Positions 56,926 to 60,426 of a DNA stretch of 64,000 nt are shown here, in pieces. The notes under the pieces were generated by a model. It had not been told where the DNA came from, did no database searches, and saw only the letters and a program-made list of their open reading frames with translations. The stretch comes from a phage, in the sequence record PZ402301.1; one strand, written 5' to 3'. Within the stretch, counting starts at the first letter, position 1; the number at the start of each line of letters is the position of its first letter. A program made the translations under genes and the position numbers.

Positions 56926-58265
<1,340 letters not shown>

Positions 58266-58285
58266 TATATTATCCTCAGCAGTTT

Positions 58286-58321
58286 ATTTTATAATACCAC
58301 AACAAGCTGAGAAAGTAAACA
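58286..58321 (-). promoter_or_regulatory. early promoter-like element upstream of the 186-aa ORF and dam
   Basis: GTTTAC (rc of 58315-58320), TATTATAA -10. Confidence 0.55.
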
Positions 58322-58369
58322 AATTTTGTAAAATTTGCGATAAATATTTAATTTAAAGGAGGACGACGC

Positions 58370-58570
58370 ATGGTACAAAAATTAATGGCACTTGTTAATG
58401 CCATCAAAGGTAATAAAAAACGTATAGCTTTTACTATTTCTGCTATGATAGGAATTTTACTTTGGAATTTTGTTTTATCGCCAATTGCTATTGCTCATGG
58501 CGTTAATATTCCAGTAATTACTCTTGATACATTCGTAGATTTAGCATTTGCTTTGGTTGGGTTAATTTAA
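58370..58570 (+). CDS. hypothetical small membrane protein, 66 aa, on opposite strand to flanking early genes
   Basis: AAGGAGG RBS 7 nt upstream of ATG; two hydrophobic segments; stop overlaps gene 61 stop convergently. Confidence 0.45.
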   Translation: MVQKLMALVNAIKGNKKRIAFTISAMIGILLWNFVLSPIAIAHGVNIPVITLDTFVDLAFALVGLI

Positions 58571-59595
58571 ATCTTAGCATATTTAGATAGCCGCATTTTA
58601 GCCATCAACCCTTGGGCAATATTATTTTTCATATATTCCATAATTTGTTCAGGGGTTGCACCTTCCTTTCTAATCATATCATTAACATCTTTTGATTTCC
58701 AGGGAGATTTATCCCAAAACATAACCCTTTCTCCTGCATCAACTAATTTAGTCATTCGTTTAATAGTGTCAGGATGACGAGGTTCATTATCTAAAACCCA
58801 TACACGTCTATCTTTAAATGGAACAATTTCTAGGTCTAATTGACCACCTGTAATAGCTATACCATTTTCAATAAAAAGTGAATCTATAGGTCCTTCTAGA
58901 ACATATACATCACCATCTTTGACCCGTTCAACGCCATAGATTTTTGTTGCCTCAGGATAAGCTTTGATGGTGATATATTTTTGAGGAGCATCTTTCTTTA
59001 ATGCACGGCCTTGAAAAGACTCAGCTTTTCCATTAGCATTATAAATTGGAATAACAAGACGAGGCTCAGGTATTTCCTTTTTATATGTTCCTGGCGCTAT
59101 ACTATTAACTAATTTAGGCCATTCAGTTGTAAACCAAAGATATTTCCATTTATCCTTTGGAATACAACGGGCTTTTACATATTTTATAATTGGATGGTCT
59201 TCCGCCAGTTTATCTAATCTAACGCATGACGGAAGAGATTTAATTATTTTCTTCTCAGGTTGTTTAGGAAGTTCTTTAGGTTTTTCTACTGGACGACTTT
59301 TACCTTTTTCTTTTCTTATTTCAAAGATATACTCACGATATAAATCAGGTTCAAACTCCTTTAAATATATTCCGATTGGTGCATGATAGTTACAGTTATA
59401 ACAATGAATATTTCCTTCATTATTATCGCCGTAATACCATCCACGGGCTTTATTTTGGTCGGTTTTTGAATCTCCACAAACAGGGCATCTAAACCGCAAT
59501 TTAAAAGTTGAACTATTATTTACTTGTGTGAATTTAGGTAAATGAGCTAATGCACGGTATGCAAACTCATTATCAATCCAAGGTATTGATGACAT
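58567..59595 (-). CDS. 61: DNA primase (gp61)
   Basis: 342 aa; N-terminal zinc ribbon CPVC...CYNC; TOPRIM-like region. Confidence 0.9.
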   Translation of the reverse strand: MSSIPWIDNEFAYRALAHLPKFTQVNNSSTFKLRFRCPVCGDSKTDQNKARGWYYGDNNEGNIHCYNCNYHAPIGIYLKEFEPDLYREYIFEIRKEKGKSRPVEKPKELPKQPEKKIIKSLPSCVRLDKLAEDHPIIKYVKARCIPKDKWKYLWFTTEWPKLVNSIAPGTYKKEIPEPRLVIPIYNANGKAESFQGRALKKDAPQKYITIKAYPEATKIYGVERVKDGDVYVLEGPIDSLFIENGIAITGGQLDLEIVPFKDRRVWVLDNEPRHPDTIKRMTKLVDAGERVMFWDKSPWKSKDVNDMIRKEGATPEQIMEYMKNNIAQGLMAKMRLSKYAKI

Positions 59596-59763
59596 TTTTA
59601 CTCTTCTTTTTCTTTAGATTCCTCTTTTTTCTTTTTAGGAATCTGTTCAGGACCTTTATTTACTACAGCACCTGACGTTGTTCCAGTAGAGATATTTTCA
59701 GGATTACCACCTGAATCTCCAGCGACCATATCTTCTTTGATAAATTCTTTATATGTTTTCATA

Positions 59764-60120
59764 TTAACCTCTATTCATAAAAGCATTAAAAATTTGGTCA
59801 TCAATCGATGGAATAGCAACCTTTTCGGCATCATTTAGCAAATCATTAATTTCATCAGATAGCATAACGCATGTACCTTTATTTCCTGTAATTGTTACTG
59901 CACAATTACGAACGTTTTCTTTATCAAATTTTAGGTTAATATTTTCGTAGTGAAAATCCTTTAATGCCGAATATATTTTTAAAATGAAATTGTCTTTTAC
60001 TACAATAAACCCAACCTCACTATTAAAACGTGGTTCATGGAAACTGTAATAAACCTTTTCATCTATAAAATCGTATGAAATTTTTTCCATTTTTAAATAT
60101 GAAAATTCAGAACTATACAT
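59764..60120 (-). CDS. hypothetical protein, 118 aa (61.x block)
   Basis: ORF track. Confidence 0.55.
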   Translation of the reverse strand: MYSSEFSYLKMEKISYDFIDEKVYYSFHEPRFNSEVGFIVVKDNFILKIYSALKDFHYENINLKFDKENVRNCAVTITGNKGTCVMLSDEINDLLNDAEKVAIPSIDDQIFNAFMNRG

Positions 60121-60132
60121 ACTAACCTCTAA

Positions 60133-60426
60133 TTACTCACCTACCACTTCAGCGATGATATTTTTATTATTGAAGTTTTTATCACAATACAGAACGTAAT
60201 TATACTGCATTACACCACCAGACTTAAGCTGTTTTTGTACTTCAGCTTTCATTTCAGGGCGATCACGCTCAACGATATTCATAATATCTGCTTCAATCTG
60301 AGTTTCAACCTCAGTCTGATCTGCGGTCATAGACCATTCACACAAATCTTTATCATAACCTGCCATAGCAGGCTGAGCAGCACAAGAAGCCAAAGCAAAA
60401 ATTGCAGCAAAAACAAATTTTTTCAT
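60133..60426 (-). CDS. sp: Spackle periplasmic protein (superinfection exclusion / lysozyme inhibitor)
   Basis: 97 aa; cleavable signal peptide MKKFVFAAIFALASCAAQPAMA; position and length as T4 sp (61.3). Confidence 0.8.
   Translation of the reverse strand: MKKFVFAAIFALASCAAQPAMAGYDKDLCEWSMTADQTEVETQIEADIMNIVERDRPEMKAEVQKQLKSGGVMQYNYVLYCDKNFNNKNIIAEVVGE

Follow-up and report, generated by a model that had tools for sequence, protein, structure and literature searches.

The DNA analysed here (the window) is a 64-kb segment of a Tequatrovirus (T4-like) genome, in which a 1.1-kb stretch around the open reading frame (ORF) of interest is 99.2% identical to Escherichia phage GEP001 and has matches in 504 phage records. 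This ORF encodes a 66-aa protein with the translation MVQKLMALVNAIKGNKKRIAFTISAMIGILLWNFVLSPIAIAHGVNIPVITLDTFVDLAFALVGLI, and its neighbours are the primase gene (gene 61) and the restriction endonuclease (REase)-like and dam genes (Table 1). A sequence-only reading of the window had described a gap of about 300 nt between a 186-aa ORF and gene 61 that holds this plus-strand ORF, an AAGGAGG site 7 nt before its ATG, a convergent arrangement with gene 61 in which the stops overlap, and an upstream motif one base off the T4 late-promoter consensus. The layout bears this description out. The gap, which extends from the end of the 186-aa ORF at 58265 to the start of gene 61 at 58567, measures 301 nt, and the ORF and its Shine–Dalgarno (SD) site lie within it as claimed. 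The TAA of the ORF (58568–58570, plus strand) and the stop codon of gene 61 (58567–58569, minus strand) share a TTAA, beyond which the ORF overlaps no other coding sequence (CDS). The motif begins the element GATAAATATT at 58339–58348, whose first eight bases match TATAAATA at 7/8 positions.

Table 1. Features of the dam.1–gene 61 locus, in window coordinates.
Feature	Position	Strand	Basis or detail
186-aa REase-like ORF	57705–58265	-	ORF listing
Late-promoter-like box GATAAATA (T4 consensus TATAAATA at −13 to −6)	58339–58346	+	sequence
Shine–Dalgarno site AAGGAGG	58356–58362	+	7-nt spacer (acgacgc) to the ATG at 58370
dam.1-family CDS, predicted small membrane protein, 66 aa, ATG start	58370–58570	+	sequence and ORF listing
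Terminator-like hairpin and U-run, inside dam.1 codons 5–13	58382–58407	-	11-bp stem, then TTTTTG
TTAA, overlapping convergent stops of dam.1 (+) and gene 61 (-)	58567–58570	.	sequence
Gene 61 (DNA primase), convergent neighbour that anchors the synteny	58567–59595	-	ORF listing, profile matches

The 66-aa protein matches the PHROG family phrog_2024, to which function is unassigned, with an hmmscan E value of 8.2e-31 that aligns residues 2–66 to positions 1–65 of the 65-position profile. The gene is named dam.1 in T4T (HM137666.1, protein ADJ39749.1), a genome from the Karam laboratory whose origin has been described (PMC2993671). The T4T gene has the same position, orientation and 4-nt overlap with gene 61 as the window ORF, which differs in an SD–ATG spacer of 7 nt as compared with 4–6 nt in relatives and in being flanked upstream by the 186-aa REase-like gene, which is mostly deleted in T4; the two copies show no other difference of substance. 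In the T4 reference genome (NC_000866.4/AF158101.6), the ORF is present (NC_000866.4 17738–17938, plus strand; 92% identical to the window ORF) but unannotated, and hundreds of other records annotate the dam.1 homologue as a hypothetical protein. The gene is therefore already known as a prediction in public annotations (dam.1, phrog_2024) and is not a discovery; because most modern annotations already predict the ORF, the present finding is incremental.

More specific names occur on a few homologues and do not withstand inspection. The label 'putative head morphogenesis protein' in T2 (copy at AP018813.1 16631–16831) and T6 was transferred by similarity, and the same record also gives it to gene 61.1; 'Holin', 'DNA packaging ATPase' and 'dCTP pyrophosphatase', each found on single homologues, are unsupported and uninformative. 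Neither the 66-aa protein nor a divergent paralogue matched any entry in Pfam, NCBIfam or PADLOC. An exhaustive HMM search of 1.8 billion representative proteins retrieved only six clusters, all from the family itself, and no remote homologues, while a Foldseek comparison with viral models returned family members, two probable distant relatives of ~63 aa and otherwise non-significant helical matches. Across the family, structure and defence-library comparisons, no match pointed to a function. Literature searches covering dam.1, T4 late promoters near dam and gene 61, ribosome profiling and differential RNA-seq (dRNA-seq) retrieved no mention of the locus, and the T4 proteome, transcriptome, CRISPRi-ART, HIDEN-SEQ and transposon papers retrieved are likewise silent on it. 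A T4 dRNA-seq study reports 150 phage transcription start sites, 22 of them antisense.

This annotation gap has practical weight. A very large phage family has T4 as its reference genome, and many omics and genome-wide knock-down studies start from annotated CDSs only; the CRISPRi-ART libraries, for instance, were designed on annotated CDSs. Such screens can easily omit a gene that occurs in essentially all of the ~500 Tequatrovirus records and in related genera but has no entry in NC_000866 or AF158101. At 66 codons, it is also a small and cleanly mutable target.

Conservation among T-even relatives, which the sequence-only reading had proposed as a check together with synonymous-site constraint, is evident. 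A tblastn search yielded 693 phage records that contain the ORF, and the alignment covers at least 80% of the query in 687; identity to more than 500 Tequatrovirus records is 90–100%. The number of records with at least 80% protein identity to the ORF (504) is about equal to the number carrying a primase at least 95% identical (502), which indicates that essentially every Tequatrovirus keeps the gene. We extracted 18 loci, namely 12 from Tequatrovirus (10 of which entered the statistics), 4 from Mosigvirus and 2 from Gaprivervirus, and the ORF is intact in all 18. In the ORF frame (+0), the pN/pS ratio (Nei–Gojobori, summed over pairs) is 0.169 among the ten Tequatrovirus copies and 0.149 among the four Mosigvirus copies, and variable sites at the first, second and third codon positions number 9/2/12 and 6/1/14, respectively. 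Frame +0 is the sole frame free of internal stops; the remaining five contain 1–10 each. The low ratio in antisense frame −1 (0.19–0.25), a frame that has stops, is a mirror effect of the coding frame and was set aside. Between genera, protein identity falls to 48–55% and synonymous sites are saturated. By these substitution patterns, the 66-codon ORF is a genuine protein-coding gene under purifying selection.

Convergent homologues flank the primase 3′ end in five genera of Tevenvirinae: Tequatrovirus, Mosigvirus, Gaprivervirus, Dhakavirus and Jiaodavirus. In the Mosigvirus phages ST0 and ZQ3, which have no dam, the homologue sits between gene 56 and gene 61 and overlaps the primase stop by 4 nt. 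The Gaprivervirus VR25 carries two tandem, diverged paralogues (positions 1495–1692 and 1701–1901 of the extracted locus L015), the second of which overlaps the primase stop; for the first paralogue, two Gaprivervirus copies compared with each other give a pN/pS ratio of 0.68. An unannotated ORF of this second type occupies the 290-nt gap between genes 61 and 56 in the Dhakavirus JS98 (minus strand, 2226–2426 of locus L020), and the second-type homologue carries an Asp inside the hydrophobic helix. The same 4-nt stop overlap recurs in T4, T2, Mosigvirus, Gaprivervirus (second paralogue) and JS98. In the Jiaodavirus KMI13, a 63-aa homologue of a third type is separated from the primase stop by an 18-nt gap and does not overlap it.

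The variable cassette of the locus, which consists of dam, the 186-aa ORF or neither, starts a few bases upstream of the ATAAATA box. As judged from this synteny, the gene is linked to gene 61 and not to dam. It is absent from the primase position in the Krischvirus Brandy and the Karamvirus AS6 and is consequently not a feature of every member of the T4 superfamily. In the Foldseek comparison, the predicted model resembles a 63-aa protein from another Karamvirus. A profile search extended the family to 116 clusters (90% identity), among them proteins from Slopekvirus-type Klebsiella phages, and none of these clusters has an informative name.

The promoter-like and ribosome-binding elements are conserved together with the ORF. 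An ATAAATA core lies 12–23 nt before the ATG in every genus examined, with diverged flanks, and a GGAG(G/A) motif follows it on the 3′ side in all homologues. The base that precedes the core (position −13) is G, A or C among homologues and never the consensus T; it is G in the window, a deviation that may make the promoter box weak. T4 late promoters are defined by a TATAAATA-type box ~6 nt upstream of the start site and need no −35 element, and GATAAATA departs from that box at this one position. Geiduschek and Kassavetis list 50 T4 late promoters, of which 32 are perfect matches to TATAAATA; A replaces T at −13 in nine, and the remainder mostly carry a single deviation (PMC2988020). The annotation of phage Lutter marks the same 8-mer as a promoter.

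Both elements are scarce in the window. ATAAATA occurs at 14 sites as compared with 36.4 ± 5.4 expected from dinucleotide shuffles (both strands), and none of 100 shuffles fell below 14, a depletion that would fit selection against spurious late promoters. Of the 14 sites, four are located 18–30 nt before the ATG of an ORF of at least 66 codons, and the genes behind them are gene 36, the holin gene t, soc and dam.1. The boxes of gene 36 and soc are both TATAAATA, and that of t is AATAAATA. AAGGAGG is found only three times in the 64-kb window: at dam.1, at the ribosome-binding site of t and, in antisense orientation with no ORF behind it, inside a 286-aa ORF that we take by eye to be thymidylate synthase. 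The rarity of AAGGAGG, the depletion of ATAAATA and the conservation of both elements across genera together argue that these features exceed chance. In the predicted mRNA fold, the SD site and the AUG are unpaired.

The dam.1 start region therefore resembles those of the T4 late genes t, soc and gene 36, which share a NATAAATA box 18–30 nt before the ATG and a strong SD site. The likeness is greatest for t, whose box is also off consensus at −13 and whose SD site is the identical AAGGAGG. The dam.1 region differs in its G at −13 and in lying inside a counter-clockwise early block, convergent with an early gene. This setting, which the sequence-only reading had found unusual, bears on timing. 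All early and middle transcripts of T4 run counter-clockwise, which is the minus strand here (PMC2988020), so that a plus-strand gene at this position could only be late. Late, gp55-dependent expression is the reading best suited to the box and the orientation, and is probably correct.

The dam.1 protein is predicted to be largely helical. An AlphaFold2 (AF2) model built from a nine-sequence alignment (mean pLDDT of 77) contains helices at residues 2–12, 16–42 and 52–63. The hydropathy profile places a transmembrane core at residues 19–42, with Kyte–Doolittle values of at least 1.6 at centres 27–36 (19-residue window). The C-terminal helix (52–63/66) comprises 12–15 residues and is both hydrophobic and amphipathic, with two aspartates (D53 and D57) and a hydrophobic moment of 1.44, as compared with 0.37 for the transmembrane helix. 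Of the two hydrophobic segments claimed from the sequence, then, the first stands as one full predicted transmembrane helix in both AF2 and hydropathy, whereas the second is too short, or at best marginal, to cross the bilayer and is probably not a second transmembrane span. The five Lys/Arg residues of the protein are all N-terminal to the transmembrane helix, with none after residue 18, a distribution that by the positive-inside rule suggests an N-in orientation.

Conservation within the protein is concentrated in and just after the helix. W32, N33 and G44 are invariant among 18 representatives with less than 80% identity to one another, and P38 (17/18), P48 (15/18), G64 (16/18) and an acidic residue at position 53 (Asp or Glu, 17/18) are nearly so. 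The family signature W32-N33-x4-P38-x5-G44-x3-P48, together with a basic N terminus, is complete in the window protein. A conserved Asn in the middle of a membrane helix usually drives helix–helix association, and its presence here suggests that dam.1 works by associating with itself or with a membrane partner.

The periplasmic end of the helix also carries a pattern like that of a signal peptidase I site, with a Pro at −5, small residues at −3 and −1 within (A/L/V)40-x-(A/T/S)42, which (H/Q/N)43-G44 follows, and a K/R-rich n-region; in the window, residues 38–44 read P-I-A-I-A-H-G (nt 58481–58501). Cleavage at this pattern, if it occurs, could leave a 24-aa acidic, hydrophobic periplasmic peptide instead of an anchored protein. 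A hydrophobic stretch of ~24 residues with an invariant W-N pair is more typical of a stable anchor than of a signal peptide.

The ORF is the genuine T-even dam.1 (PHROG 2024) gene, and we consider it likely that it encodes a late membrane protein acting through helix contacts; its late timing, membrane topology and mode of action are what we infer from the features above. A short monocistronic late message would start near 58352 from the gp55-type promoter GATAAATA and would be translated from the strong SD site. The product would be a 66-aa inner-membrane protein with its basic amphipathic N-terminal helix (five Lys/Arg) in the cytoplasm and residues ~19–42 crossing the membrane. Both the conserved (H/Q/N)-G-x3-P turn and the C-terminal helix, which is acidic and amphipathic, would then lie at the periplasmic face or dip back into the bilayer. 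Trp32 and Asn33 in the middle of the helix, with Pro38, Gly44 and Pro48, would make specific helix–helix contacts, either in self-association or with a membrane protein of the host or the phage late in infection. Such a protein would serve as an accessory modulator of a late membrane event and not as an enzyme. The sequence-only reading had offered a late-expressed small membrane protein as one of two possibilities. The pN/pS ratios, the intact ORF in 687 of 693 records, the conserved ATAAATA and SD elements and the transmembrane helix all support it, with the timing deduced from the promoter-like box and strand.

This predicted architecture recalls the small single-pass bacterial membrane regulators AcrZ, MgrB and MgtS and the small T4 membrane proteins Imm, Ac and RI. 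These share with dam.1 a length of ~50–100 aa, one transmembrane helix and the lack of an enzymatic domain, and the likeness extends to a conserved polar transmembrane residue that could mediate helix–helix binding. There is no sequence or fold relationship between them and dam.1, and T4 Imm is expressed early, unlike dam.1 as placed here. A more ambitious version, which we regard as unlikely, would make dam.1 a near-universal, late-made membrane factor of T-even-like enterobacterial phages, whose Trp-Asn helix would bind a specific membrane protein of host or phage and so control a late membrane event, with its convergent transcription damping primase expression at the same time. The event would then be, for example, lysis-inhibition signalling or membrane-associated head assembly, and protection against superinfection or against a membrane-based abortive defence would be further examples. 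If true, this version would bring into the T4 late programme an overlooked gene that is absent from the reference annotation.

The other possibility named in the sequence-only reading was an antisense element. In an RNA-level role of this kind, late transcription from GATAAATA would run into gene 61 and shut off primase expression by antisense pairing or collision, along with read-through expression of dam, and the ORF would be incidental or secondary. Several features of the locus accommodate such a role. The two genes converge and their stops overlap, so that a terminator has no space between them; the 57600–60200 interval contains no predicted terminator-like site on the plus strand; and close linkage to the 3′ end of the primase gene persists from genus to genus. 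At several sites in T4, both strands are known to be transcribed, at different times (PMC2988020). An antisense role leaves unexplained, however, why pN/pS is low in one frame, why the SD site and ATG are conserved, why the protein occurs as tandem paralogues and why the W-N/P/G/P pattern is invariant at 25–50% protein identity; moreover, the Jiaodavirus ORF does not overlap the primase gene. We therefore judge a primarily RNA-level role unlikely, and the constraint on the protein frame means that the antisense alternative is not needed to explain conservation. With no plus-strand terminator predicted behind the ORF, dam.1 transcription may, as a secondary side effect, act in antisense on gene 61. 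A type I toxin system would pair a small hydrophobic toxin ORF with a dedicated overlapping antisense RNA; early read-through from gene 61 would be antisense to the ORF, but no dedicated small-RNA promoter was identified.

A role in lysis, in which dam.1 would be a small holin, a pinholin or an antiholin-like factor, appears more improbable still. The protein is small, hydrophobic and probably late, holin t has a closely similar arrangement of promoter and ribosome-binding site, and the homologue in phage OE5505 is named 'Holin' in UniRef/BFVD. It likewise has the small size and at least one transmembrane domain expected of a holin (AF2 helix 16–42, hydropathy) and so shares with holins of classes I–III and pinholins a small, probably late and membrane-embedded product. 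It differs from them in lacking a charged hydrophilic C-terminal tail, ending instead in ALVGLI (C terminus FVDLAFALVGLI), and in lying outside a lysis cassette, with no adjoining endolysin or spanin gene. Furthermore, the phage carries its own T holin elsewhere in the window (PF11031, E = 2e-117), dam.1 has no holin match in Pfam, PHROG or NCBIfam, and no evidence backs the label on the OE5505 homologue.

That the ORF arose by chance in an AT-rich spacer whose DNA is constrained by the minus-strand mRNA, the dam-unit promoter or a hairpin is effectively refuted on comparative grounds. In its favour, the minus-strand hairpin and the early dam-unit promoter region extend over the 5′ portion of the locus, and the ORF has no entry in the T4 reference annotation. 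The hairpin, however, occurs only in Tequatrovirus whereas the ORF is intact in all genera examined, substitutions are concentrated at synonymous sites with 1–10 stops in every other frame, and the protein motif persists beyond recognizable DNA similarity.

The hairpin is a terminator-like feature of the early strand, downstream of gene 61 and ahead of the promoter for the REase-like/dam unit that follows. Its predicted fold has a free energy of −12.4 kcal/mol in the window and −8.9 kcal/mol in T4, with z = −2.7 in both. It is absent in Mosigvirus and Gaprivervirus and is thus not part of the conserved function of the gene. As a structure specific to Tequatrovirus, it was rejected as the cause of ORF conservation.

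The upstream neighbour in the window merits a brief description. The 186-aa ORF contains an invariant D72...E85-x-K87 motif and has weak profile matches to PADLOC REase_II (E = 8e-5) and Pfam DpnII (E = 0.002, below the curated cut-off), matches that suggest a protein resembling type II restriction endonucleases. The ORF ends in a stop codon that shares a TAATG with the dam ATG. T2 carries this gene at 97% identity. T4 is without 549 bp corresponding to window positions 57785–58333 (junction at 1466/1467 of the extracted T4 locus L003), a deletion that lies between TTTG(T/C)GAT microhomologies, and it keeps an 87-nt 3′ remnant of the REase-like gene in the annotated dam–61 intergenic region.
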